Under the pieces are notes generated by a model. It saw nothing but the letters and a program-made list of their open reading frames with translations, did not search any database and was not told the origin of the DNA. 64,000 bases of DNA from a virus. The position numbers and the translations under genes were made by a program. Where the stretch lies: positions 119,209 through 183,208 of the IMG/VR virus record IMGVR_UViG_3300042923_001106; one strand, written 5' to 3'. Numbering within the stretch: position 1 is the stretch's first letter; the number at the start of each line of letters is the position of its first letter. Of this stretch, positions 3,792 through 59,682 are shown piece by piece.

Positions 3792-4226
3792 ATGAGGGAT
3801 ACAAGGGAAATTAAATTCCGGGGACGCCGAATTTGCAATGGTGAGTGGGTATACGGTTGGTTGTATTCAATCGTTCCATATGGAAATCCTCATGAGCGTG
3901 GTTTTATGATCAAAGAGGATATAGGAGACGATTATGAGGTCGATCCCGAATCAGTAGGTCAATATAGCGGCGTTAACGATGACGACAAGGATGAAGAGTT
4001 ATTTTCTGGAGACATCATACAGGTGGGATACGACGGCGAAACGATTGTCTGTGAAGTGATGAGAGAAGGTCCGGGATTCTTGCTGGCATCAGGCGAATTT
4101 GATGACGGATATATCTGGATCAGTGAAATAGTAGAATCGCTTGATGGCAAGTTTTATATACCTGATTCGGAATTGTTGGGAAATCGCTGGGAGCATCCTC
4201 ATCTATTAGGAGGGAACCAAGCATGA
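3792..4226 (+). CDS. YopX family phage protein
   Basis: REIKFRG...WVYG, VDPESVGQYSG and terminal ELLGNRWEHPHLL signatures. Confidence 0.85.
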   Translation: MRDTREIKFRGRRICNGEWVYGWLYSIVPYGNPHERGFMIKEDIGDDYEVDPESVGQYSGVNDDDKDEELFSGDIIQVGYDGETIVCEVMREGPGFLLASGEFDDGYIWISEIVESLDGKFYIPDSELLGNRWEHPHLLGGNQA

Positions 4227-4609
4227 GGATAGACGATATGAAGCCGGGACCGGAATTGAATGCGGAATTTGCGAAAGCACTCGGAAAGCCGAATTTGCGC
4301 AAATATAACCACTGCTATGTTTGGGACAATGTGGGGTACGTCAACGGAAAACCAGTTGGATCAGTAATGGGAACGATCGATGTTCCAGAATACTCCACAA
4401 CATGGGACGGAATGAGCGAAGTTGTTGGGGAGATGCAACGACGGGGATACAGATATTTGCTCCATGACACTCATAACGGCATATCGCTTGCGCAGTTTCA
4501 AAAATATAATGCAGAATACGAACTGACTGGGTTCGGCAGGAGTGAAGGAAAAACGGCCCCTCACGCTGTAACGTTGGCAGCTATTAGGGCTCTACAAGGG
4601 GAGCAATAA
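4223..4609 (+). CDS. Phage ABA-sandwich/BC1872-like protein
   Basis: GPELNAEFA...PEYSTTWDGMSEVV...TAPHAVTLAAIRAL pattern. Confidence 0.6.
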   Translation: MRIDDMKPGPELNAEFAKALGKPNLRKYNHCYVWDNVGYVNGKPVGSVMGTIDVPEYSTTWDGMSEVVGEMQRRGYRYLLHDTHNGISLAQFQKYNAEYELTGFGRSEGKTAPHAVTLAAIRALQGEQ

Positions 4610-4613
4610 ACGT

Positions 4614-4790
4614 ATGAAGACGCTATGTACACGTTGTAAAAAGCCGGTTTATAAAAATCGAAACCACTGGACAGATGTACACGGAAATCGCAAGCATATT
4701 CGCTGCCAAAAAGAAGAAGAACAGGAGCGCCGTGAACGAGATAAAAGAACATCTCGCATGGAGGCTCTACAAGGGGAGGATACCCAATGA
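4614..4790 (+). CDS. 58-aa Cys/His microprotein (absent from the ORF track)
   Basis: MKTLCTRCKKPVYKN...KHIRCQ...EALQGEDTQ; it ends in the shared junction motif. Confidence 0.6.
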   Translation: MKTLCTRCKKPVYKNRNHWTDVHGNRKHIRCQKEEEQERRERDKRTSRMEALQGEDTQ

Positions 4791-5014
4791 GTAAAAAAGG
4801 CGGAGATATACTTTGTGATCTCTGGAGCCGAGTCGATCAAGCGGATTTTGACACCATGATTACGGAAGCATTCAAGAAGATTCCTACGAAAATCCAAAAG
4901 AAATTCATTGCAGAAATTCTTGAAAATAATATTTGGGATTTGAACGGAAAGCCTGATGATAGAACTTTATCCGAGTGCTGGGAATTTGTTGATGCAGGGG
5001 AGGATACCCGATGA
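4787..5014 (+). CDS. Hypothetical protein (cassette block)
   Basis: ATGA overlaps at both ends, with the shared RBS motif. Confidence 0.7.
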   Translation: MSKKGGDILCDLWSRVDQADFDTMITEAFKKIPTKIQKKFIAEILENNIWDLNGKPDDRTLSECWEFVDAGEDTR

Positions 5015-5208
5015 ATAACTGTGGAGTATGCAATCATCACTTAGACATCAACCATGCCCAATTAAGACGATTCGAATTGGATGGGACTCTTACGCCGTAC
5101 CATATGGGTTGTGAGGGTGAGGCGCGGAAACTTAAGCCTTGTGTAGACTGCGGCCAACATCGACTATTATGCAGCGATTGTGCAGAGGTAGGGGAGGATA
5201 CCCAATGA
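5011..5208 (+). CDS. Cys-rich zinc-finger-like microprotein
   Basis: CGVC, HMGC, CVDC and CSDC motifs; shared junctions. Confidence 0.65.
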   Translation: MNNCGVCNHHLDINHAQLRRFELDGTLTPYHMGCEGEARKLKPCVDCGQHRLLCSDCAEVGEDTQ

Positions 5209-5402
5209 ATATTATACCAATCATCAGAAATGAAAGAGGTAGCCTGACGCTTAATAGGGCTGATTTGGATATCATCATTGGTCAGATTATTGATATATGC
5301 AGAACAGAAAAGGAACTGGAATGGGTTCAAGATCAATTAATAGGCTGCATTGAATCCATGGTGGAAGGAAAATTGGAAGAGTTGGAGGATACCCAACCAT
5401 GA
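5205..5402 (+). CDS. Hypothetical protein (MNIIPIIRNERG...)
   Basis: Start refined to ATG 5205, after the junction RBS. Confidence 0.65.
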   Translation: MNIIPIIRNERGSLTLNRADLDIIIGQIIDICRTEKELEWVQDQLIGCIESMVEGKLEELEDTQP

Positions 5403-5602
5403 AATACGCGATAAAGTTCCAAGGCGAATATATGCGCCAAAGATACGGATCAGATTGCTTTACCGACGATCTTGGTTTCGCTGTCCTATTCGATTCTCGG
5501 GAAGAAGCTGTATCCGAACTTTTCGGTGATGAGCATGTCGTTGAAATACAAGAAGACGAAGAAGGCGGAATCTGGGAGGATACAGCAAATGGAATGGATT
5601 AA
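5399..5602 (+). CDS. Hypothetical acidic protein
   Basis: RBS junction and ATGA overlap. Confidence 0.65.
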   Translation: MKYAIKFQGEYMRQRYGSDCFTDDLGFAVLFDSREEAVSELFGDEHVVEIQEDEEGGIWEDTANGMD

Positions 5603-5906
5603 TTGCAGCGACAGAATGCCGGAACCGGCTCAACGTGTACTTGCAGTATTCCCAACAGGGTATAAGGGTGTCAGGCATATTTCCTTAGTCATTTACGTTC
5701 CGGCCAAATCAGTAAAGGCGGAAGATTTGTGGGACGACGACAGTGATTGTGTTGAATACGACGAAGAGAAGGATTGCTTCTACGTCGAAGAAGGTTGGTA
5801 TGAATCGTCTTACGAGTCGGAAAAGGATTGGCGTTTGAATTACGAGGTAACTCACTGGATGCCATTACCTCATGTTCCAGTGGCACAAGGGGAGGATAAA
5901 GGGTGA
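5589..5906 (+). CDS. DUF551-like phage protein
   Basis: MEWINCSDRMPE...VTHWMPLP; start refined to ATG 5589. Confidence 0.8.
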   Translation: MEWINCSDRMPEPAQRVLAVFPTGYKGVRHISLVIYVPAKSVKAEDLWDDDSDCVEYDEEKDCFYVEEGWYESSYESEKDWRLNYEVTHWMPLPHVPVAQGEDKG

Positions 5907-6163
5907 AACAGCCAAACATAAAAATATTCGGAAAAACTCATAAAGTCGTTCAAATCGAATTTAACGACGATGGCTTAATCCAAAAGATCATATATAAGGC
6001 AAATCAACACAATAACAGAATAGTATTCCGACGAGACGATATGGTGGATGAATCGCTCGTACGGAAATACAAAATCCACGAGCCAACAAATCATCCATAC
6101 CACAACTATGCTCATGCGCCTGATCTGGAGTCTTTATTGGTACAAGGGGAGGATACCCAATGA
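5903..6163 (+). CDS. Hypothetical protein
   Basis: GTG start after GGGGAGG; ends in GEDTQ. Confidence 0.65.
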   Translation: MKQPNIKIFGKTHKVVQIEFNDDGLIQKIIYKANQHNNRIVFRRDDMVDESLVRKYKIHEPTNHPYHNYAHAPDLESLLVQGEDTQ

Positions 6164-6318
6164 AGCGTGAACTGATTATATCCGGTTCGGTAGAAAAATG
6201 TTGGGCTTGCAAGGGTCGAGGATATTCGGGATCTGAAAACCATCCCGAATGCGTAGTTTGTAGTGGATATGGTTGGTTGCCGAAGGGAGAAGAAGATGCC
6301 GAGACGCCATCCAGATGA
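6160..6318 (+). CDS. 52-aa DnaJ-type zinc-finger microprotein (absent from the ORF track)
   Basis: CWACKGRG...CVVCSGYG, i.e. two CxxCxGxG motifs. Confidence 0.65.
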   Translation: MKRELIISGSVEKCWACKGRGYSGSENHPECVVCSGYGWLPKGEEDAETPSR

Positions 6319-6451
6319 AGTTAAGCAAAAATGCGGACGATGCAGCCGAGAGAGATACGAACTCGTTAAATGTGGCGGAATATATGTATGTTGGAACTGC
6401 TGCAACTACCTAAAAAAGTCGGGGGATGATACCCATGGAACCAGTAAGTAA
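6296..6451 (+). CDS. Cys-rich microprotein
   Basis: CGRC...CWNCC; RBS before ATG 6296. Confidence 0.5.
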   Translation: MPRRHPDEVKQKCGRCSRERYELVKCGGIYVCWNCCNYLKKSGDDTHGTSK

Positions 6452-6782
6452 TGCTGATAAGTTGAGAGATAAAGCACCGGAAGATATAGACGATGTCCTA
6501 TCCGAACTCGAAGACTTGAGCAAATTTTGGAAAGAGGCAATGAGGGAGCAAGCCGAGGAATATATTGAATCTCTCCAATCCATACAGCAGGAAAGGGATA
6601 AACTGCTTCGCAAACTGAACTATAAAGACTTGATTATCTCAAATGCGGTGGAATTAGTTGAGGATCGAGAAAAAGTGCTTTCGGAATTGCGACCATTCGT
6701 TTCACCAGAGCATCAAAAATTAATAGATTCAGTGGTGGACAACGGGAGTTTCAATGTCGGAGTAGGGGAGGAAAGGACATGA
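6435..6782 (+). CDS. Hypothetical coiled-coil protein
   Basis: ATG 6435 follows the junction variant; helical, charged sequence. Confidence 0.65.
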   Translation: MEPVSNADKLRDKAPEDIDDVLSELEDLSKFWKEAMREQAEEYIESLQSIQQERDKLLRKLNYKDLIISNAVELVEDREKVLSELRPFVSPEHQKLIDSVVDNGSFNVGVGEERT

Positions 6783-7045
6783 CCGAATTGACGGAACAGC
6801 GAAAACGGGAGATCGCTGAGATGGCCCGGAGGGATTTAAACGCTCATGCATGGTTATGCGAACAAGAGCAGGAAGAATATGCCACTGAGGTTCTTTCCCT
6901 CCAACAACAGGTAAACACGCTGACGAAACAGATTGAGGCAGCGTTAACCGATTTGGAAGCATATAAACCTTTAACGGCTATAGTCGTCCTTAAAAGTGCC
7001 ATACAGTCTATAAAGGAATCCCCGAGGGAGGAGCAAGGGAAATGA
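6779..7045 (+). CDS. Hypothetical protein
   Basis: RBS GGGGAGG and ATGA overlap. Confidence 0.65.
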   Translation: MTELTEQRKREIAEMARRDLNAHAWLCEQEQEEYATEVLSLQQQVNTLTKQIEAALTDLEAYKPLTAIVVLKSAIQSIKESPREEQGK

Positions 7046-7308
7046 TTAAATTGACATATTTTGAAGGTGACGCGCTGTATATTGCGCCAGATCGAATTAT
7101 CGCCGTTTATGATGATATTTCCGCGACAACGATAAGTTGCGGTGGAGAACTTTTCAGCGTGGAAGAAAAGCCAGAAGAAGTAGTACGCAAGATCATGGAT
7201 TACAAACTGGCTATGATTGAATACCGTTCGAAATTCCAAAACAATAAATCTGTTGCTGACATATTGTGGGGAATGAATAAACTGGCCGGATTGGAGCAGA
7301 CCCCATGA
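7042..7308 (+). CDS. FlbD/SwrD-like domain protein
   Basis: MIKLT...YIAPDRIIAV...TTISCGGELFSVEEKPEEVVRKI resembles the FlbD family pattern. Confidence 0.55.
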   Translation: MIKLTYFEGDALYIAPDRIIAVYDDISATTISCGGELFSVEEKPEEVVRKIMDYKLAMIEYRSKFQNNKSVADILWGMNKLAGLEQTP

Positions 7309-7709
7309 TAGTACGAATCACATTTGGCGACCGAGTAATGATGTTTGGAGATAGCTATAAGCCGTGGCACATGCAGATGGACGAATATATGCGGCGATGT
7401 GCAGAAGGATTGCCAAGACCGGAAAGGGTTGAAGTATCAAAATCAAAGTGGATCGGGTGGGGTGGCTTAAAGTGGTGTTCATCGGATAACTTTCAGCATG
7501 AGTTGAACCGTGAAGGGTGCCAAGAAAGCGATCCAGACAATTCTCGGCCACGTAAATACGCTGATATGGAGTTTGCTCCGGCAAAAGGAAAGGTGTTGGG
7601 GAAAGTATACGATGCATGGGAGTCTGGTCAGCGATTGATGAAAATCGGGAAATTAAATGATGAAGAATATAGGTTGTATCAGCGCGGAGAATTGAAAATA
7701 ACTGTCTAG
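7305..7709 (+). CDS. Conserved hypothetical phage protein
   Basis: 134 aa ORF with RBS and ATGA overlap. Confidence 0.7.
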   Translation: MIVRITFGDRVMMFGDSYKPWHMQMDEYMRRCAEGLPRPERVEVSKSKWIGWGGLKWCSSDNFQHELNREGCQESDPDNSRPRKYADMEFAPAKGKVLGKVYDAWESGQRLMKIGKLNDEEYRLYQRGELKITV

Positions 7710-7740
7710 GCCCAATAGGGGATAAAGGGAGAGAAAATGA

Positions 7741-7929
7741 ATGGCTAAATATGTGTTTTTTGCATCGACTGGGTATGTTGGATCAAGCCGTGAAGAAACT
7801 GTAGAAATTCCGGACGAGGAACTTGAGGGCATGTCTGAGAACGAACAAACTGCGTACGTTGATAAAAATTATTATCAGGATTGGTTGGCGGGAAACACTG
7901 AATTATCATTTTGGAAAGTCGACGAGTAA
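7741..7929 (+). CDS. Small acidic phage protein
   Basis: STGYVGSSREETVEIPDEEL; RBS GGGAG. Confidence 0.65.
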   Translation: MAKYVFFASTGYVGSSREETVEIPDEELEGMSENEQTAYVDKNYYQDWLAGNTELSFWKVDE

Positions 7930-8459
7930 AGGAGAATCCCCATGGAACAGATAGAGGGGTAGAAGGGTAACGTACCTATAACCCCCTTTATCGGCCCCCA
8001 CTTCGTTAAGCGGATTCGGTCGAGTCGTAGGATTAGTCAAAGGACGAAAGATGAACACCAATACAATGCGAGAAACTGCCGCAAGGGCTACGATGTGTGT
8101 ACTGCAAAACAATGGAAAAGAATAAGTTAGCGAAAGCAAAAAGTTGGTTTGGACAAGGGGAATACAATGTTAATTTGATGATTTCCGCTGGGGTAATAAC
8201 GGAATATCGAATTCTACAAATGTACGAAAAAGAAGTAGAAGGCAAGTAGCATTTTGAATAATTTGTCCGTAAGGGGTGAAACAGGGATGGATGAAAAGAA
8301 GTGTCCTAACGAGTGTGGAGATTTAGAAAATGTTAGAGGTCATATCGAAACGAATGACGGAAGAACGTATTTCAAAGTGGATATTTTATATTGTCCTGAT
8401 TGTCATTACATTCAAAACGTAGATGCCAACTTGTAACATTTTGAAAAGGCGGTGTAGAT

Positions 8460-19572: not shown

Positions 19573-19833
19573 ATGAGAGTAGCATCTATTGAAGTTGAAA
19601 GAGCGAAAGTTGAGTATAAAATGATTTTTAACGAAGATGCAGATGAGCATAATTTGTTTGACCTGTACCACATTGGATTAGTAACCTCATATGGAAAATT
19701 ATTTGGCGAATTAGAAAAGAGCCGTGAAATGGCATCTCTTCATATGAAATTAAGCAATAGTTTCTCGCAGGTTGGAATCAATTTAGACGATTATCAAATC
19801 ATTAATATGATCATGTGCATAATTAGGGAATAA
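19573..19833 (+). CDS. Hypothetical protein
   Basis: Stop within the palindrome at 19829. Confidence 0.6.
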   Translation: MRVASIEVERAKVEYKMIFNEDADEHNLFDLYHIGLVTSYGKLFGELEKSREMASLHMKLSNSFSQVGINLDDYQIINMIMCIIRE

Positions 19834-19864
19834 AATGAGTGTTTTATTCGAAAGGAGACGTTAA

Positions 19865-20551
19865 ATGAACGACGAATTACAGTCTACAATAATCTTCGAT
19901 ATTTATGAGCGGGTACATATTCCAGACGACTTGCCGTTACTCGCAAAGATTAAACGACACGCTTTGATTCCAGAGATTCAGTACTATCAAGTAGGAGACG
20001 AATATCATCTAAAAGGCAGTCTAAACTTATCACTTTACTACACGGGTATTGATAGTATTATGAATGAAAGAACACAAACCTTTTATCATCAGATCCCACT
20101 GGAAATAACAATACCTATCTCAAGAGGCGTTCCTGAATTCTGGCAAATTGGCACTGTAAATGTAGAACATCTTGGAAACAATATAATAAATGTTACAGGG
20201 ACATTTGAAGTTGATCTTTATACTGAAGAAGAAAGTGTAAAAATAGATAATATAAATAAATTCAAATGTACAAATGAAGAATGTATTGAACTACAACTTA
20301 AACAAAGTGAAGATATGCGCTTGATTTTAAATATTGAAGATGGTATTCGTCATCAATACTATCTTAATGAAGATGGTTCGCTTGAACATTATGATAGTGA
20401 TGGCATGGGACAAGAGATTTATTTACGTTGCAATGTTTGTGGTCAAAAGTATGAATTTGATTCTGATATTGGTCATGTATTTGAGCAACATATCCTGCCA
20501 TTAAATAAATGCGAAATACGGGATATAGGGATTATTAAAATTAGCAGATAG
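19865..20551 (+). CDS. SpoVID N-terminal-like domain fused to a zinc-ribbon domain
   Basis: IIFDIYERVHI...LIPEIQ...LKGSLNL...HQIPLEITIP...NVTG resembles the Paenibacillus-type SpoVID N-domain; the C-terminal part has CTNEEC and CNVC. Confidence 0.7.
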   Translation: MNDELQSTIIFDIYERVHIPDDLPLLAKIKRHALIPEIQYYQVGDEYHLKGSLNLSLYYTGIDSIMNERTQTFYHQIPLEITIPISRGVPEFWQIGTVNVEHLGNNIINVTGTFEVDLYTEEESVKIDNINKFKCTNEECIELQLKQSEDMRLILNIEDGIRHQYYLNEDGSLEHYDSDGMGQEIYLRCNVCGQKYEFDSDIGHVFEQHILPLNKCEIRDIGIIKISR

Positions 20552-20583: not shown

Positions 20584-20964
20584 ATGAATATGAACGTTAT
20601 TGAGTTTGAAACTGATGAATTATGGGAGATTGCTTACGGTGATCATGAGTTTGCGCAAGTTATAAAAAAGGATACATACAGAGAAGGTTGGTATGAATAC
20701 CACGAAATCACATTCGTCTATGATGGTGTTCAATATTCGTTTGTTTATAAGGAACATACTTCTCCGAAAGTTTGCGATAGGGAAATTGTTCAAGATGCAA
20801 AGCCAACCGAAGCGCAGCCCATCTCTGTTAATCCAGATGAAGAAGCGGAGTTCATATGGGAGAATTTGATGAAAATGGATAAGGGATATATCAGCAAAGA
20901 AGATATTAAAACAATTACAGAATTACAAACAGAATATCTTATTAGTATTGGTGTTATTAAATAA
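20584..20964 (+). CDS. Hypothetical acidic protein
   Basis: RBS AAGGAG; stop within the palindrome at 20960. Confidence 0.65.
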   Translation: MNMNVIEFETDELWEIAYGDHEFAQVIKKDTYREGWYEYHEITFVYDGVQYSFVYKEHTSPKVCDREIVQDAKPTEAQPISVNPDEEAEFIWENLMKMDKGYISKEDIKTITELQTEYLISIGVIK

Positions 20965-20998
20965 AATATGATTTTCATTGCCTAATCGGAGGTCAAGT

Positions 20999-51818: not shown

Positions 51819-52031
51819 CTATGCAATTACTTTTGCTAATGTCTGATTGTACTCATCTTCGCTAATCCAATCCTTATCTAATGCATTATCAATCTGTGTT
51901 TGGGTAAACGTTTCAACAGCATAAACCATAACTGGATCAACATAAGCAACGGGGATGTCGGCAAACAATTGTGTACCATAAAGATAAATATTCCTAGCGT
52001 ACGAACTTGTTCTGAAAGTGTAAATTGGCAT
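51819..52031 (-). CDS. Small tail-associated protein (XkdX/CD1375-like position)
   Basis: Typical small gene after tail-fibre genes; ...IDNALDKDWISEDEY. Confidence 0.6.
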   Translation of the reverse strand: MPIYTFRTSSYARNIYLYGTQLFADIPVAYVDPVMVYAVETFTQTQIDNALDKDWISEDEYNQTLAKVIA

Positions 52032-52064
52032 TTTTTCATACTCCTTTTTATTATTTTATTTTAT

Positions 52065-52739
52065 TTATGCCTCCGTTGGATTCTGTGAAAAATAGAAATC
52101 CATGAAGGCTACGAAGTCGGTATTAATTTGAGCTAGCTGTTGAAATAATGCTGCCTTCTCGGCAGATAAAAGATCGATTTTATTCTGCTGTTCATGAATC
52201 AACTCTTTATCCGACTTCGGTCTAGGTGGTTGAGGTGGATCTGGAATAGGAATAAGTTCGAATATTTCCTCTAATCCTTCAACAAAATCTGGATGATCTT
52301 CAGTTATTTCGATTGGTTCTTGCGGTACATATTGAATTTGATCATCGTACTCAGTTTTCCAAAATAGTAAATTATCTTCCTCATCTACCACTTGTACCTG
52401 TTCGGTTGTCCAAAGTTTAATAAATTGACCTGTACCTTCTTGACCGATTATTGCCCCATTGGTATATCCGATGACATTTTCTTCGTTGTCGTAGATTGGA
52501 ATTTGCTCATAGATCGGCTTCGTTACCTCATAACTTGCCTGAACTCCATCGGACATTAAGGGAACTTGTTTTGTTACCATAACTGGCTCATCTGTTGACT
52601 CAATCGATTGTACTTGACGAGGAATATTATATATTTCTTCCAAAGGAGGTTGAGGAAGCCAAAACAGCAGCTTCCCTTCCTCATCCAGTTTAGGACGCTT
52701 TTCGAAGCGCCCATGACCGTCTATCATGATTATTTCCAT
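52065..52739 (-). CDS. Tail fibre assembly/chaperone-like protein
   Basis: Position after the fibre gene; Pro-rich linker and C-terminal coiled coil. Confidence 0.6.
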   Translation of the reverse strand: MEIIMIDGHGRFEKRPKLDEEGKLLFWLPQPPLEEIYNIPRQVQSIESTDEPVMVTKQVPLMSDGVQASYEVTKPIYEQIPIYDNEENVIGYTNGAIIGQEGTGQFIKLWTTEQVQVVDEEDNLLFWKTEYDDQIQYVPQEPIEITEDHPDFVEGLEEIFELIPIPDPPQPPRPKSDKELIHEQQNKIDLLSAEKAALFQQLAQINTDFVAFMDFYFSQNPTEA

Positions 52740-52743
52740 ACGC

Positions 52744-55700
52744 TTACACCCCCTTCAACAGCGGCCTACCGGGGATTTTGAAAAAGTCCCAAGCAGAACC
52801 ATTACCAATTTCTTTGATCCCTTCGCCTATACCAGTTACAACAGCTAGATACAACTCTTCATCATGCGAAACAAGGTAATACACAATACTCTGAGAGGTT
52901 ACAGCTTTTGGAAGCAACGCCCCAACAGCGTAGAAATTGGCACGGTTTGGTAAGGCGATTTGAGGTTGTGAAGACTGAACGCTGTAGTTCCCTTGTATTA
53001 CTTTTGTCCCTGATAGAAACTTCACGGAACTGCCTACGATACCGTTTTCAAATGTGCCTATGCCGTGAGCGTAGTAGTAGTTCTCTACAGGAATGTTTTG
53101 TCTAAAAACGTTAGGAACAGGCAAGTACCCACTACCTATTGAATCATCAAAACTCTCGCTCATTAATCTCCATGTTTCCTTGTTCAAAGGAAGTCGGGAC
53201 GCCATACCAATATATGAAGCGAATGCGCTAGGCGGGACACTTCCAGTACCCATAGTGTGAGCCATTATGCCGTTGCTTTTAGCGAGAACTTTTACGGTCT
53301 TCTCTACACCTTCCGCCGCTATACCCTGATACGGTACGTGTTGATAGTTCAAAGACACAACGTCACTATTCGCACCACCACCAAGATTCCGGTATGAACG
53401 AGCCGGGAACTGAAGCTTGGTTTCCTTGGTCTCTGGGCGAACTTTTACGATGTTACTTTTGACATAATCGACGTAATCCGCAAATGCAGGTTTAAAACTT
53501 ACGTAGTCGGTATACAAATTTGAAGGGATCGTCGGGCCTGATGGATAAGTAGAATGCACTAATACATAAATCTTTTGGTTTTTTGTGATGAAATTTCTGG
53601 TCGGCCATGACGTGTCTATACCATTAATAATTAGCGAAGGTGACGAAGAAGTATTAACCCAGCCCCCATCGCCGCCAATCCAAGTTTGATCTACATCATC
53701 CCATACTTTTGCGATAGCTCCATACGACAAAACTCCGCCGTTGTCTCCACTTCCATATCCTACCCAACTAAATGTTAACCCTCTCACAGCAGCCTTCAGT
53801 TGCGACAGAGACATTCCAAGGTGCGACAAGTCAAATTCATAAATATCTTGAGGGTAATACCCTTCAATTGAAACTGGCTGAACATTTAAAATCCCATCTT
53901 GTTTGCTTATATTGTCATAAGTACCTTGCCAGTGTTCCGACGAGGAAACTGTCGGTGGTTGATTTACACTTGCCAATTGTCTCCATAGCACCCTATTAGG
54001 ATTTTCGAACATACTGCCTGCGGATTTCCCCAAGTAGTTCAGTGTTAGATTGCTTTTGCGTCCCGGCGTCCAAGTTGTAGCAATGGCACCTTCTTGAAAT
54101 TTGAGTCGACTAATTTTTGCCGTTTTAGTTATACCGTCCGTTGTACTAACGGATTCGACTATAAATTGGATAGAACTGTTGGATATGCTATTAAATGTTA
54201 TAGAAATACGTCTTCGCGGCCCAGTTGATATTGCGTCAGCGGATTTAATGATGGAATTTAAAGGTTGTCCCCAAATATAGCTGTATATGTCACCCCCCGT
54301 TACAGAATCGATATCATACGAAAGAGTGTATAGAGTGTTGCTTTTAATTGGGATGTTCATATTTAATCGCTTGCTTCTGTCTGAGGTCATAGTCACCAAG
54401 AGAGTCCCCAATGAGTCAAGGTCAACCCCAGCGTCCAGAGAGATACCGTTAGCGTCAACAGGCAAGGCTTGATTCTGCGTCAATACATTTTCACTCACGA
54501 CCGGGAACGGGTTTTCCGGTTGGAGGACGGTGTATCCGGTTTCTGCTGTGTTTAGTGTAACTTCGAGTTCTACATAGTCTGAACGTATTGATGAAGCTGT
54601 TCCTGTAGGCCCGTCGGATGCCTCAGCGAAAGCAAGGAAGTGAACGAAACCATTTATGTCTATTACATCCCAGCTGTTAATAAGGTCGTTAAACACAACT
54701 TGCTGCACCTTACTAACTGAACCTAGAGTACTAATACCCGTAGAGTTTTGCCACCAAGCGCTATTAGCTTCTGTCCAAATCGCAAGAGTCGCCTTGTTCC
54801 CTAATGGACCAGAACCATACCCCCACCAATTACACATAATAGTACTCAAATTTGCCTTCAACTTCGCTACCTTCGCTGCCGTGTCAACACAATCCGCAAA
54901 GAACCCTTCGCCATACTTGTCCTCCATAAGACGGATAAGATTGAAGGAGAATATGTGTTGAGAAATATTGCCGCTTACGCCAGTGATGTTGGTGGATACA
55001 AGACCGTCTAGGGTCGAAACGTATCGATACTCTAAAGTATCACGTTCTACCCAATTGACTGAAGAAGGTACTTGTAAAGCGCTATTAGCAACAAATTTGA
55101 ACGTGTGCGGTATAGCATCCGTACTCCCTGATACTTTCCCCACAAAGTTCGCCTTAGCGCTCACCGTCGCCCCTGAGACATTCCGCTGACCATTAACATA
55201 GGCGTCGAGTACATTCGTTGCTACATTGTTGATCCCCTTACCCGGAGGAAACACTGCCGAATAGTCAATCTTGATATTGGTCGTAGTCACGGTTGGCACT
55301 GTCGTTATGGTGTAGGTGACTTCTTTCGTTCCCAGATTTGACCATGTACCTGCGATACCCGTTGCGGTTACGGTTGGGGCGGACGAGGATGCTGTGGTAT
55401 CAATGACCCACCCATTAATATAACCAACAGGAAGGGCAAAAGCGTTCATATTTAACGATGTTGCTCCGTTGATGGACAAAATAGTATCACTGTAGCCGAC
55501 GCTGAAATCACTCTTTAAAACCCTCACAGTATCAGAAGGAAAAAACTGACCATTATTTTGAATATTGATGATCTTGCTCAGCCCATCGCCGTCTGTTAGA
55601 ATCCTAGTGATTCCAGTATCAGAATCCAAGACGCCTGTTATAACTCCATAATCATTCCGAATCTTGATGGTATCCCCAACCGCCCATACGCCTTCAGTTG

Positions 55701-58700
55701 CTTGCGTTACCTTGATGTGTCCTTGAGGAGTCTTCAAGGCTTCTACAATGTCCGAACAGGTTTCAACCGTTAATGCATCTGAGAAAACAGAACGGTTTGA
55801 ACTGAACTGAGTCCCGTTTACACCGTCGTAATGGATTAGACTGTTGTTACCAAGGTGAGAGTTGTAGCCTTGGTAGTTCGCCGGAATTAACCAGCGTCCA
55901 AATGGAACGAATGGGTTGAAATCTGCTCCTTTTGTTAGTTGCCAGTTCGAGTAGGTGATGATTCCGGGCGCGCTGTTATTTAAATCGACAAATACGCTGC
56001 TTGCATCGACGGGAGTTGTAAATGTAAACGGACAACTAAACGCTTCCGGCACATACGATAGCACGTTGCCGTTTGCATCATGAAAGATTAACCTAAAGTA
56101 TGCGTTTGTACTACCGCTAACATTGAAAGTATATTGTTGATTCGGCAAAACACTAACCGTAGGCCCGGAAGGTTGCCATGCCGTTGTCGCATTCAGTGTC
56201 AACGCATAAGGCCCCGTCACGTTAGCATTCGCGTGCAACGTATCTGGCCGGTCCGGCAGCAAGTTCTCCACAATATTCGGCAGCGAGTCTACATATGGAA
56301 ACAAGGCACCAATTTTGTCTTCGCCAGTCCAGTTCGGATCGACGTCGATAAGGTTGTATGTTGCTTGGTCGATTTCGTAAATTGATACCTCATCAATATA
56401 CGCGGACAGTCCACCAGCACCTCCAGCACCTACTAAGAGCCGGAATCCATTCGTCGTGACCGTGTTTGAGGTATCTATTGTAATTTTGAGCAATTGCCAT
56501 GACCCGATTTGCGCAACACTTGCTTGACTTAAGTAGCGTGTATTGAATGTGCCCCGGTCCCTTATTGATATTTCTACGCCGCCGTCGGTGTACGACTCGA
56601 TATACACCCACGCTAACACCAGATATCTCTTACCTGTATCCAATTTATACGAATAATCTCTGTATACATAGCTACCAAAATTAACATTCGGCAAAACTTT
56701 CACAGACGTGTTTCCTGAACGTTTAACCGTCGTGGACAATTCGGGAGATACTCCGGAAAAATTCCACCCGATAAGGTTTTCAAACCCCCCATCCATACCT
56801 AACAAGTTCTTCAAGTCCACAAATGTCCCATCCGCTCTCTTCACATGCACCGACTGCAAGTCTTGCGGTACGCCAATTGGTGCGCGTTGTAACCCGTAGG
56901 TCTCGTTCACGGTCGTTTTCGTGTCCTTTGTCGTAAGGGTTCCGCGAAGCAAGCTGTCCAAACTACCCTCAAGGAGACTCTGGTAATTCACGCCTGTAAG
57001 CGAAACCTTGTGGCGAAGATCGATGATGTCATCAGCGTTTACGATGTTGGAGTATATTCCGTCGGGACGGTCAGATTGTTTCCATACTGCATAAGAACCC
57101 CAAAATATCGCTGAGTTTTTCGATACTGTTACATTCATGAGCGTGGCGCTTTTAGTCTCGTTGATAACTGATGGAAAATCTGTGTTCAAGATATAAATTT
57201 TATCCCCTGTTTTGAATCCTGCCGTGGACGCAACGGGTAAGTCAAATGGTACACCCATCGTAAATGCGTAGTCTGCTCCCGTTATAATAGTACTAGTGTA
57301 ATCCCGCGCCCCGTTAACATTATCCGCACGATACCCACCAGAGTTCCGACGCTTTACACGGAAAAGCGGAATGGCGTATACGTAGCCGTCGATTGTTTTC
57401 AGGGCGTCTTTGGAGGTTTGGGAGCCGTCGCCTGCCACCCACAATCCTTTATCCTCCAAGGCTATACCTTTAGTACTGGAGTAACCATTAATGGCGTAGT
57501 ATGATCTTGCAGATTCGGTAAAAAACGCAGAGTGCTTAAAAAAATCAGCTGACCCAGACCATATAGGAGCATTATTTAGTGGAACGGAATTTCCACCTTG
57601 TGCCTGAACAACAGGGTTTGGTATTGAACTGTCGATACCATCTCTATAATTTTCAAAATCCACCCCGGCGACGGAACGAATACGCCACTGCATAACTCCT
57701 TTTTGTCCCACATGTGGAAACCATGCTTCAAGAAATACAAGATCGTCGCGAGTCCCATAGGTTGGAGGAGCCGGAAGCAATACGCGATTCCACTCGTGAG
57801 TACCCATTTCTGCGTTAGCCGATTTTACTAACAGTTTGTACCCGTTGATAATGGCGTTAAATGGATTTGTCATTAAGTTGTTAGGGTACAATGAAAAGAA
57901 GTTTGATGGGACAATTTGTAATGCTCCGTCCACAGGGAGACTGCCTGAGCTGAATCCTTGAAAACCTGAGTTTAGATTGGTTATACCACTATGAACTTGT
58001 TGTCTTACAAGTTCAGCACTCGCCAGTGCTACGACATCTATATCCGCACTAGTTGCTGCTCCTGATAGATTAAAAGTATTAATATGAGTCCAAGCCGACC
58101 CATCATAACGATAATACGTATTATCTGCCAAGACCTGAACGGCATCTCCCAATTGAGGAGACGGATATGTTGTTACAATATCTGCGTATGTTGCAACCGG
58201 TGTTTTATAGTTTAGTTTCGTAGTATTAATCGCTGTATTAAGATTGCTTATCGCATTCGTCGTATTCGTTTGACGTGTTAATTCTTGTGATTGTCTTGTC
58301 GTTTCGTTGGTCTGTCTAGCCGTTTCATTAGTAGATCTTGCTGTTTCTGCTGTACTACGAGTATTCTCATTGGTATCTCGTTCATTTTCCGCTATCACAC
58401 GTGCAGACTCAACAGACACTCGATTTGCTTCAACTGATGCCCTCGAATTTTCAGCATTTACTCTTGCTGACTCCACACTTACCCGATTATTTTCCGCTGT
58501 CACTCTAGCCGATTCATTATTCTGTCTCGTTGTTTCATTCCCTGCTCTTGTTGTTTCTGCTAAGGCCCGATTCGATTCTTCTGTTGCTCTTGCACTCTCA
58601 GCAGACGCTCTTCCACTCTCCATAGTTACTCTGGAGGATTCAGCGCTTGCCCTCGCAGTCTCCGCACTCACTCTCGAACTTTCTGCATTTACTCGATTAG

Positions 58701-59682
58701 TCTCAGAAGTGTCGCGAATATTTTCTGCTGCATCACGTGCAGACTCATCGGATATTCGATCTGATTCTGCTGATGCCCTCGCGTTTTCAGCATTTACACG
58801 AGAAGACTCGGCACTCACTCGATTATTTTCCTCTGTCAGCCTAACTGATTCATTGCCCTGTCTTGTCGCTTCATTTCCTATTCTTGTTGTTTCGGCAATG
58901 GATCGATTTGAGTCTGCCGATACTCTCGCATTTTCGGCTAACGACCTATCATTTTCTGCTGTCACTCTTGAGGATTCTGCACTCGATCTCGAACTTTCCG
59001 CATTTACCCGGTTAGTCTCCGTTGTAGCCCGATTACTTTCTGCAGTAACACGCGCATTTTCTACACCAACGCGACCTGTCTCCGCACTTACTCTCGATGA
59101 TTCCTGAGACTGTCTCGTAGCTTCTTGTGATTGCCTTGTTGATTCCTGCGAGTTCCTCGTATTTTCAGATGACACTCTAACTGATTCAGCGCTTTGAATA
59201 TTCGTATTTGTTGAGTTAACTGTGTTTGTTGCATTGATTGCAGCTTGAGTTGCAGTCTCTGCATCATCGATGGCTTCACTTATTAAAGCTAAATCTTCAA
59301 TTGCTTGCTCTCCTTCGGAGATAATATCCCCGAGTGTCTTTGTCACGTCTCCGTTTGAATCTGTTTCTACATATACCCTCGTTGCAGGGTAAAACTGCAA
59401 TCCCTTTGCTTTAAAACTATATGAAAGCTGTAATCCTTCTCTTGACGAATGATGTGTGACTACTCCATTTGTATAGTCTACATAATATTCATTAGCAAAA
59501 GGTGAATGATTTTTTGTCTCGATCCACGTTACACCGATGCCACTTACTTGAACCTTTGCAAAAGAATCTGGTAATTCAGAAAGTACAACTTTAGAATTAA
59601 CAATCTGCTGTGATTCAGATTTATCTATATAATTAGTTCTCATTTGTGAGATTATTGGGTTTTGATAATCAAAAATGCTCAT
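52744..59682 (-). CDS. Giant tail fibre/receptor-binding protein (2312 aa)
   Basis: N-terminal anchor, long heptad repeat stalk, VATYADIVTTYPSPQLGD motif, carbohydrate-binding-like modules (NLLGMDGGFE..., LNATTAWQ..., NVLTQNQ...) and a duplicated C-terminal module. Confidence 0.85.
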   Translation of the reverse strand: MSIFDYQNPIISQMRTNYIDKSESQQIVNSKVVLSELPDSFAKVQVSGIGVTWIETKNHSPFANEYYVDYTNGVVTHHSSREGLQLSYSFKAKGLQFYPATRVYVETDSNGDVTKTLGDIISEGEQAIEDLALISEAIDDAETATQAAINATNTVNSTNTNIQSAESVRVSSENTRNSQESTRQSQEATRQSQESSRVSAETGRVGVENARVTAESNRATTETNRVNAESSRSSAESSRVTAENDRSLAENARVSADSNRSIAETTRIGNEATRQGNESVRLTEENNRVSAESSRVNAENARASAESDRISDESARDAAENIRDTSETNRVNAESSRVSAETARASAESSRVTMESGRASAESARATEESNRALAETTRAGNETTRQNNESARVTAENNRVSVESARVNAENSRASVEANRVSVESARVIAENERDTNENTRSTAETARSTNETARQTNETTRQSQELTRQTNTTNAISNLNTAINTTKLNYKTPVATYADIVTTYPSPQLGDAVQVLADNTYYRYDGSAWTHINTFNLSGAATSADIDVVALASAELVRQQVHSGITNLNSGFQGFSSGSLPVDGALQIVPSNFFSLYPNNLMTNPFNAIINGYKLLVKSANAEMGTHEWNRVLLPAPPTYGTRDDLVFLEAWFPHVGQKGVMQWRIRSVAGVDFENYRDGIDSSIPNPVVQAQGGNSVPLNNAPIWSGSADFFKHSAFFTESARSYYAINGYSSTKGIALEDKGLWVAGDGSQTSKDALKTIDGYVYAIPLFRVKRRNSGGYRADNVNGARDYTSTIITGADYAFTMGVPFDLPVASTAGFKTGDKIYILNTDFPSVINETKSATLMNVTVSKNSAIFWGSYAVWKQSDRPDGIYSNIVNADDIIDLRHKVSLTGVNYQSLLEGSLDSLLRGTLTTKDTKTTVNETYGLQRAPIGVPQDLQSVHVKRADGTFVDLKNLLGMDGGFENLIGWNFSGVSPELSTTVKRSGNTSVKVLPNVNFGSYVYRDYSYKLDTGKRYLVLAWVYIESYTDGGVEISIRDRGTFNTRYLSQASVAQIGSWQLLKITIDTSNTVTTNGFRLLVGAGGAGGLSAYIDEVSIYEIDQATYNLIDVDPNWTGEDKIGALFPYVDSLPNIVENLLPDRPDTLHANANVTGPYALTLNATTAWQPSGPTVSVLPNQQYTFNVSGSTNAYFRLIFHDANGNVLSYVPEAFSCPFTFTTPVDASSVFVDLNNSAPGIITYSNWQLTKGADFNPFVPFGRWLIPANYQGYNSHLGNNSLIHYDGVNGTQFSSNRSVFSDALTVETCSDIVEALKTPQGHIKVTQATEGVWAVGDTIKIRNDYGVITGVLDSDTGITRILTDGDGLSKIINIQNNGQFFPSDTVRVLKSDFSVGYSDTILSINGATSLNMNAFALPVGYINGWVIDTTASSSAPTVTATGIAGTWSNLGTKEVTYTITTVPTVTTTNIKIDYSAVFPPGKGINNVATNVLDAYVNGQRNVSGATVSAKANFVGKVSGSTDAIPHTFKFVANSALQVPSSVNWVERDTLEYRYVSTLDGLVSTNITGVSGNISQHIFSFNLIRLMEDKYGEGFFADCVDTAAKVAKLKANLSTIMCNWWGYGSGPLGNKATLAIWTEANSAWWQNSTGISTLGSVSKVQQVVFNDLINSWDVIDINGFVHFLAFAEASDGPTGTASSIRSDYVELEVTLNTAETGYTVLQPENPFPVVSENVLTQNQALPVDANGISLDAGVDLDSLGTLLVTMTSDRSKRLNMNIPIKSNTLYTLSYDIDSVTGGDIYSYIWGQPLNSIIKSADAISTGPRRRISITFNSISNSSIQFIVESVSTTDGITKTAKISRLKFQEGAIATTWTPGRKSNLTLNYLGKSAGSMFENPNRVLWRQLASVNQPPTVSSSEHWQGTYDNISKQDGILNVQPVSIEGYYPQDIYEFDLSHLGMSLSQLKAAVRGLTFSWVGYGSGDNGGVLSYGAIAKVWDDVDQTWIGGDGGWVNTSSSPSLIINGIDTSWPTRNFITKNQKIYVLVHSTYPSGPTIPSNLYTDYVSFKPAFADYVDYVKSNIVKVRPETKETKLQFPARSYRNLGGGANSDVVSLNYQHVPYQGIAAEGVEKTVKVLAKSNGIMAHTMGTGSVPPSAFASYIGMASRLPLNKETWRLMSESFDDSIGSGYLPVPNVFRQNIPVENYYYAHGIGTFENGIVGSSVKFLSGTKVIQGNYSVQSSQPQIALPNRANFYAVGALLPKAVTSQSIVYYLVSHDEELYLAVVTGIGEGIKEIGNGSAWDFFKIPGRPLLKGV
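58250..59190 (-). repeat. Degenerate 7/14-aa coiled-coil repeat within the tail fibre
   Basis: (E)SARVSAENxRxxAE-type repeats; these produce the stop-free antisense ORF 58307-59107. Confidence 0.85.

Follow-up and report, generated by a model that had tools for sequence, protein, structure and literature searches.

The window analyzed here, a stretch of 64,000 nucleotides, makes up the end of a virus record of 183,208 bp (IMGVR_UViG_3300042923_001106; 100% complete by CheckV) whose assembly originates from soil metagenomes. Its GC content is 35.8%, and almost every gene between ~0.5 and 50 kb lies on the plus strand, in an array that includes Dam, a RecJ-like protein, both ribonucleotide reductase subunits, a DnaE-type polymerase, and a large serine recombinase and that is followed, on the opposite strand, by a GH25 lysin. 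The polymerase shares 60-66% identity with its counterparts in Geobacillus virus E3, Psychrobacillus phage Perkons, and Tsamsa-like Bacillus phages, and 65% with a prophage gene of Heyndrickxia camelliae; given these relatives, the record is assigned to a large, probably temperate phage of endospore-forming Bacilli. Two stretches of 42-46% GC (4001-8000 and 52001-58000) stand out from the 35% GC phage, the second of them inside a 2312-aa ORF on the minus strand (52744-59682) that has no Pfam match.

Within the array lies an ORF, P0001, whose product joins a domain of the spore-coat morphogenetic protein SpoVID to a module with four cysteines (Table 1). Assemblies from at least four soil samples contain this ORF with the same nucleotide sequence, so it is not an assembly artifact; the stretch is present in three soil DNA runs, and the listed holders include no RNA dataset. 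The palindrome ATRAAA-N6-TTTYAT occurs 33 times in the window (up to one mismatch, plus strand, 2912 to 52183), against 5.2 expected copies. The exact copies on either side of P0001 are intergenic, overlapping the stop codon of the preceding gene or coming directly after it, and thus delimit a single inter-palindrome unit made up of P0001 and a 126-aa ORF. The latter has homologues among hypothetical proteins of Tsamsa-like Bacillus phages and a weak YozD-like match below the cut-off (21.9 bits). Upstream of P0001, sigE/sigK-like promoter patterns and terminators are absent, and sigma-70-type matches occur at chance level. Neither a start codon nor a ribosome-binding site is found internally around residue 130, so P0001 is made as a single chain. 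For the 201-aa ORF two genes 5' of P0001, the precomputed Gad2 match was not reproduced with a local Pfam copy, which returned a weak PolyA_pol match instead.

Table 1. Features of the window (positions counted from its first nucleotide), together with the prophage that carries the P0001 relative P0159
Feature	Position	Strand	Basis or remark
ClpX C4 zinc finger without AAA+ module, residues 32-68 of 76 aa	3519-3749	+	Pfam 51.7 bits, cut-off 27
Stand-alone Sigma-70 region 4, 67 aa	10669-10872	+	Pfam 43.2 bits, cut-off 24.1
201-aa ORF, two genes 5' of P0001	18090-18695	+	precomputed Pfam PF26128 Gad2 (anti-Gabija) match
Exact junction palindrome ATRAAA-N6-TTTYAT	19830-19847	+	left arm contains the upstream stop codon
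Ribosome-binding site AAAGGAG, 7 nt 5' of ATG	19851-19857	+	sequence
Whole ORF P0001, 228 aa, SpoVID-N plus 4-Cys module	19865-20551	+	ATG start; 183-kb phage record
SpoVID N-terminal (SPOCS) domain, residues 6-117	19880-20215	+	phmmer, profile, Atlas model
Region E equivalent, final N-domain strand	20183-20215	+	HMM placement of the B. subtilis region E peptide
Short acidic linker, residues 118-129	20216-20251	+	Y119-T-E-E aligned with the cellular W-x-E-E that opens the SpoVID linker
C-module, residues 130-228	20252-20548	+	family of free-standing ~100-aa 4-Cys proteins
First Cys pair, C135-x4-C140	20267-20284	+	family alignment
Second Cys pair, C189-x2-C192, family CPxCG motif	20429-20440	+	C189 in all rows, C192 in 90% or more
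126-aa ORF, partner of P0001 in the inter-palindrome unit	20584-20964	+	
Next exact junction palindrome, end of the two-gene unit	20961-20978	+	
Full-length YyaC spore protease homologue, 179 aa	30711-31250	+	TIGR02841 166.7 bits, cut-off 84.9
P0159 prophage, Paenibacillus sp. V4I3	JAUSZA010000001.1:2672517-2693236; 2676958-2718126 of genome		

An exhaustive phmmer search of 1.84 billion representatives splits P0001 into two modules, wherein residues 4-120 match, at 35-43% identity, the N-terminal ends of 300-600-aa proteins and residues 130-228 match free-standing proteins of 63-123 aa (identity up to 53%); none of the matches listed is a second protein combining both modules, and the 183-kb genome holds each part once, both within the P0001 ORF. 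A single alignment for both modules put the final N-domain strands in the wrong place, and local MAFFT performed worse, so the modules were handled separately; with a mean pLDDT of 37, the single-sequence AlphaFold model of full-length P0001 was not usable. The long relatives of the N-module, which are named stage VI sporulation protein D or LysM protein and come from Paenibacillus, Cohnella, Gorillibacterium, and Gordoniibacillus, carry Pfam PF20918 (SPOCS_spoVID-N) at 70-88 bits together with a C-terminal LysM domain, and P0001 is ~34-43% identical to Paenibacillaceae SpoVID N-termini (E down to 8e-11). PF20918 itself recognizes residues 11-87 of P0001 at 23.2 bits (E 6.6e-5), short of its gathering cut-off of 27.1, which the relatives P0015 and P0159 exceed, whereas a profile derived from 124 SpoVIDs with a minimum length of 300 aa, the query left out, gives P0001 76.1 bits and aligns model positions 5-117 with residues 6-117. 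A comparison with SpoVID_N models, proposed in the initial annotation, is thus positive with the SpoVID-built profile and negative at the Pfam threshold.

The structural comparison suggested at the same time came out in favor of the SPOCS fold: the ESM Atlas model covering residues 1-121 reaches a TM score of 0.79 over 115-118 residues to SipL/DUF3794(+LysM) clusters, both sides being predicted, and its Atlas feature similarity to CotE/SipL clusters is 0.94; no experimental SpoVID-N structure was found for fold comparison. SPOCS proteins are at work throughout spore-envelope assembly (bioRxiv 10.64898/2026.09.03.749163), and other coat proteins of this superfamily (CotE, SipL/DUF3794, and CsxA/CsxC) have the same predicted fold as the N-module; by sequence, P0001 nevertheless belongs to the SpoVID-N family and not to CotE or SipL, and its cysteines lie outside the SPOCS domain. 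The SpoVID of Heyndrickxia, a member of the Bacillaceae, gives only a local match of 12 residues with P0001, yet can be aligned with the Paenibacillus protein, and the domain is thus assigned to the Paenibacillaceae type. Judged by sequence and predicted fold, the N-module is a genuine SpoVID N-terminal (SPOCS) domain of this type, as had been proposed for residues ~6-120 in the initial annotation, whose assignment to Paenibacillus-type SpoVID is borne out by the phmmer matches, the 76.1-bit profile score, the Atlas model, and the nearest named proteins, which come from Paenibacillus. P0001 is a domain homologue of SpoVID, not an orthologue. The locus is a case of a phage, with relatives that infect spore-formers, carrying a homologue of a host gene specific to sporulation.

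Functional dissection of Bacillus subtilis SpoVID provides a map of what P0001 retains and lacks. There, the N domain terminates in region E, in which L125, I127, L131, and I133 are required for SafA/CotE binding and encasement and which alone suffices for SafA binding; the C-terminal region A binds SpoIVA and is the main forespore-targeting signal, with a lesser contribution from LysM (PMC6282716). Two of the SpoVID roles that the initial annotation took as established, SpoIVA binding by the N domain and anchoring by LysM, are to be corrected in this light. Homology between P0001 and the SpoVIDs of Paenibacillaceae and B. subtilis extends over the full N domain and takes in the region E strand as well as the FDIYER, H-x-IPVEI, and NVTG motifs. 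By HMM placement, the region E peptide maps to profile positions 108-118, such that I108, V110, F114, and V116 of P0001 are the counterparts of the four required residues. The hydrophobic pattern of the SafA/CotE-binding strand is thereby retained, which makes this strand a putative binding surface. Homology to SpoVID stops at residue ~117-122. Whereas cellular SpoVID is a protein of 300-600 aa with linker, region A, and LysM, the 228-aa phage protein has none of the three: the long middle linker and region A are absent, and LysM gives no match at E values up to 10, although all cellular relatives end in this domain. The loss of linker and LysM and their replacement by a Cys-rich part, both noted initially, are thus upheld. 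P0001 also departs from the cellular proteins at several near-invariant residues (G8T, R10I, E33A, G57L, F98V, D99N, and R106N).

The explanation that we favor, tentatively and at somewhat less than an even chance, is that P0001 serves as an untethered competitor for SpoVID partners in the mother cell, i.e., as a dominant-negative decoy. It would be made in the mother cell of the sporulating host, where its N domain would offer a SafA/CotE-binding surface and bind the partners of the SpoVID N domain; without linker, region A, and LysM, it would have neither SpoIVA-directed placement nor a tether, and by competing with host SpoVID it would titrate or mislocalize the SafA/CotE hubs, with disturbed coat encasement of the spore as the outcome. 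The 4-Cys module would be a separate small phage protein joined to the domain by gene fusion. Competition in trans has an experimental precedent, because free region E peptide competes in vitro with SpoVID for SafA (Nunes et al., 2018; PMC6282716). That peptide, likewise a SpoVID piece supplied in trans, is an experimental analogue of the proposed decoy, but it is a synthetic 17-mer studied in vitro, whereas P0001 comprises the entire domain and is of natural origin.

The C-module has relatives of its own. Residue 130 of P0001 is aligned with Met1 of the free-standing protein P0002, and 17 relatives share Cx2-4C and CPxCG pairs around a beta-rich core as well as a DGxLE...DSDGxGQE motif. Modeled by AlphaFold with the family alignment, the C-module attains a pLDDT of 73; its fold has no match at E <= 0.001 in Foldseek searches of PDB or BFVD, a best Z of 2.8 in the wide VIA-align search, and TM values of ~0.5 at best, to unnamed viral clusters, in the Atlas. 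Comparison with PDB sequences yielded weak zinc-site matches only, and all Pfam zinc-ribbon matches fall below cut-off. Of the zinc ribbon in the initial annotation, the four conserved cysteines therefore stand, and they suggest zinc binding, while membership in a zinc-ribbon family or fold found no match. Both available contexts of free-standing 4-Cys proteins are phage-like arrays of small genes, neither of which contains a SpoVID-N gene; one contig, L003 (7090-9620), also has a gene for a radical SAM protein and, side by side, genes for an ATP-dependent DNA ligase and a WGR/PARP-domain protein. Synteny of the window with L003 around the C-module was considered and rejected, as the flanking genes have no detectable relationship.

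The N domain, for its part, belongs to a rare, phage-only subfamily. When 5.8 billion proteins were searched with a phage-type profile, at least five phage-type proteins (P0001, P0015, P0158, P0159, and P0051) ranked above the cellular ones, and further divergent members may exist beyond the matches listed. P0015 (237 aa) and P0159 (239 aa) combine SpoVID-N with a DUF1642-like C-part, P0158 (245 aa) has a C-part that can be aligned to those of P0015 and P0159 (33-38% identity), and P0051 (121 aa) is the SpoVID-N domain alone. P0015 and P0158 are encoded on short contigs of small overlapping ORFs (1.3 and 1.4 kb, respectively), P0159 in a prophage of Paenibacillus sp. V4I3, and P0051 in the early region of a temperate phage, between Bro-N/ANT and ERF/SSB genes; the slot of P0159 in its prophage is equivalent to that of P0051, and wherever context exists the other phage-type copies occupy early regions of temperate phages. 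These copies reside on elements of ~42% GC tied to Paenibacillus, in contrast to the 35.8% GC phage of P0001, and their C-termini are absent or DUF1642-like, as opposed to the 4-Cys module. A tblastn search with P0001 and P0051 found no other phage copies in 50,697 deposited phage genomes, nor did a pattern scan of IMG/VR.

P0001 is 35-39% identical to the other phage-type copies. Half of the cellular near-invariant positions (18 of 36) are conserved in all five, hydrophobic character is kept at the four region E positions throughout, and in each protein SpoVID homology ends just past region E. Derived residues are also held in common: G57 has changed to I or L, L116 to V or I, and G8 has been lost in every copy, and D99 has become N in four. 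In a tree that took in three of the five proteins (P0001, P0015, and P0051), these are set apart from 72 cellular domains with branch support of 99/94 and long branches. Between P0015 and P0158, the N domain shows a dN of 0.18 and a dS of ~2.1 (dN/dS ~0.09, a rough ratio given a dS close to saturation, yet with dN far under dS) and is 74% identical, compared with 38% for the remainder of the protein; the N domain is hence the conserved, selected part, and in this comparison the phage-type domain is under purifying selection. The copies of P0001 are all identical in nucleotide sequence, as are three copies of P0051. A decaying, captured spoVID fragment that lacks function and was fused by chance to the next gene would agree with the fusion being seen only in this phage among the matches listed, and selection on P0001 itself is not measurable from sampled copies that are all the same. 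Such a relic is nonetheless very improbable in view of the intact frame, the strong ribosome-binding site, the completeness of the domain over residues 6-117, and the low dN of its relatives, in which the core motifs are conserved across 33-41% identity.

The varied C-parts bear on a second role, in which the SpoVID-N domain is a docking adaptor that rides SafA or CotE to the nascent coat and carries its C-terminal module (4-Cys in P0001, DUF1642-like in P0015, P0158, and P0159) to the forespore surface, where it could mark sporangia or position a phage factor. SafA and CotE arrive at the forespore without needing SpoVID (PMC6282716), so a bound N domain would be carried along, and four of the five phage-type proteins do possess a C-terminal extension akin to small phage proteins. 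We consider this role unlikely: P0051, being the N domain alone, indicates that no cargo is needed; C-parts of different lineages are unrelated and fast-evolving; and the occurrence of the 4-Cys module on contigs without a SpoVID-N gene, and vice versa, fits an accidental fusion. Because other lineages have no C-part or unrelated, fast-evolving ones, we read the fusion of the 4-Cys module to SpoVID-N as a secondary event.

The host context of P0159 ties the subfamily to spore-formers in a further way. Its ~40.6-kb prophage has a large serine recombinase that adjoins a truncated cotJC, and the two parts of cotJC, matching model positions 1-80 and 76-198, lie 40.6 kb apart; the prophage thus interrupts a spore-coat gene, in which it resembles the sporulation-gene intervening elements of the skin and SPbeta type. 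Paenibacillus sp. V4I3 also has a normal SpoVID, to whose N domain P0159 is only 30% identical, and canonical SpoVID is single-copy in all 37 species genomes of its Paenibacillus-related genus, the extra copy occurring only in V4I3. The best TIGR02899 match in V4I3 was rejected as its SafA given the presence of a signal peptide, and a complex prediction of the N-module with the V4I3 CotE, run without controls, scored 0.00 and weighs neither way. The divergence of P0159 from its own host's domain points to an ancient capture, as would be expected of a third alternative, in which a SPOCS beta-barrel acquired in the distant past would by now bind a target in the phage or the vegetative cell, outside sporulation. 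A repurposed scaffold of this kind would be in keeping with the agreement between P0001 and phage GC, the loss of several cellular invariants, and the position of the gene amid early/replication genes and near the ORF with the precomputed Gad2 anti-defense match. Its probability is low, since every known context is a phage or prophage of a spore-former, one of them inserted in cotJC, since the phage carries other sporulation-linked genes, and since half of the cellular invariants persist, as does the region E pattern.

Three such genes are encoded in the window (Table 1). The stand-alone Sigma-70 region 4 has its best NCBIfam matches in SigK C-termini, followed by SigE, and is 57% identical to loci of Paenibacillus sp. 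V4I3 versus 44% to Heyndrickxia, a weak lean toward Paenibacillus; it is possibly a decoy for mother-cell transcription. V4I3 itself holds at least six loci with equal-scoring SigK-like region 4 (ORFs of 122-242 aa, near 3.33-3.37 Mb and 6.79-7.01 Mb), which may be several sigK-related genes or fragments. The YyaC homologue is 53-54% identical to host genes of two spore-formers, Paenibacillus and Heyndrickxia being equally close. Together with the ClpX zinc finger, the SpoVID-N and SigK/E region 4 domains, each isolated from the remainder of its parent protein, make single domains of mother-cell proteins a repeated theme in this phage.

These neighbors raise a further alternative, whereby P0001, the ClpX zinc finger, and the SigK/E region 4 would tune the coat-assembly checkpoint of the mother cell, either preventing or triggering the destruction of sporangia that hold a trapped phage genome. 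SpoVID is the central factor of this checkpoint (SpoVID, SpoVK, and lipid II) (PMC11513918), ClpXP with CmpA exerts spore-envelope quality control on SpoIVA, which is degraded in a sigma-K-dependent manner (PMC5506225), and fragments of SpoVID, ClpX, and SigK/E are all encoded in the window. The checkpoint activities of SpoVID nonetheless map to its C-terminus and LysM (PMC11513918), which the phage protein is missing; the direction of any effect is not readable from sequence, and the three genes are 7-16 kb apart with nothing to indicate joint action. Manipulation of the checkpoint is accordingly rated quite improbable.

Competition by an untethered SpoVID-N domain, the favored reading, draws on several of these observations: the region E pattern is retained, phage copies show purifying selection, the subfamily includes a member that is the domain alone, P0001 is missing the region A and LysM that targeting needs, and the phage has further isolated domains in the window, a SigK/SigE-type region 4 and a ClpX zinc finger. 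Other considerations speak against it. With near-invariant residues changed in P0001, partner specificity may have shifted, and since region E is also the final strand of the fold, its conservation may be purely structural. The phage backbone is Bacillaceae-like, in contrast to a domain of Paenibacillaceae type, and a sporulation-type promoter is absent upstream of P0001. The benefit that coat damage would bring to a phage is also not obvious, given that such damage alone does not stop spore formation. In its widest form, the proposal would be that a small lineage of temperate phages infecting spore-formers has turned the SpoVID domain that binds partners into an untethered decoy, which in this phage would be part of a set (SpoVID-N, ClpX zinc finger, and SigK/E region 4) controlling mother-cell coat assembly and quality control; we regard this wider version as doubtful.

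Phages of spore-formers are known to carry homologues of sporulation genes (e.g., sigF/sigG-like sigma factors and spo0A), some of which lower spore yield (PMC9429907; PMC10294663), and a survey counted 31 such homologues, mostly with functions in regulation, chromosome partitioning, DNA repair, and the cell wall. The survey text and its text-form supplements contain no mention of spoVID, safA, cotE, or any coat morphogenetic protein, and among the papers searched, those that mention SpoVID together with phage describe no phage-encoded SpoVID. The statement that no phage SpoVID mimic had been described before thus agrees with the literature searched. Whereas the surveyed homologues are whole genes, of regulators and the like, P0001 carries a truncated single domain of a coat protein; phage-borne sporulation genes are hence familiar as a concept; the new element, as far as could be found, is a coat morphogenetic domain carried by phages in truncated form.

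If the decoy proposal is true, it would be the first case of a virus interfering with spore-coat morphogenesis. The ways in which phages are known to manipulate sporulation act on regulators (sigma factors, Spo0A, and Rap-Phr), and an anchor-less SpoVID would extend this reach to structural spore assembly. P0001 would also supply a natural dominant-negative tool for separating the partner binding of SpoVID from its targeting, and the phage subfamily shows which SPOCS residues are still constrained once the tether is removed. Lastly, the cotJC-splitting prophage and the isolated mother-cell domains suggest a wider, testable strategy of domain decoys in the phages of spore-formers.
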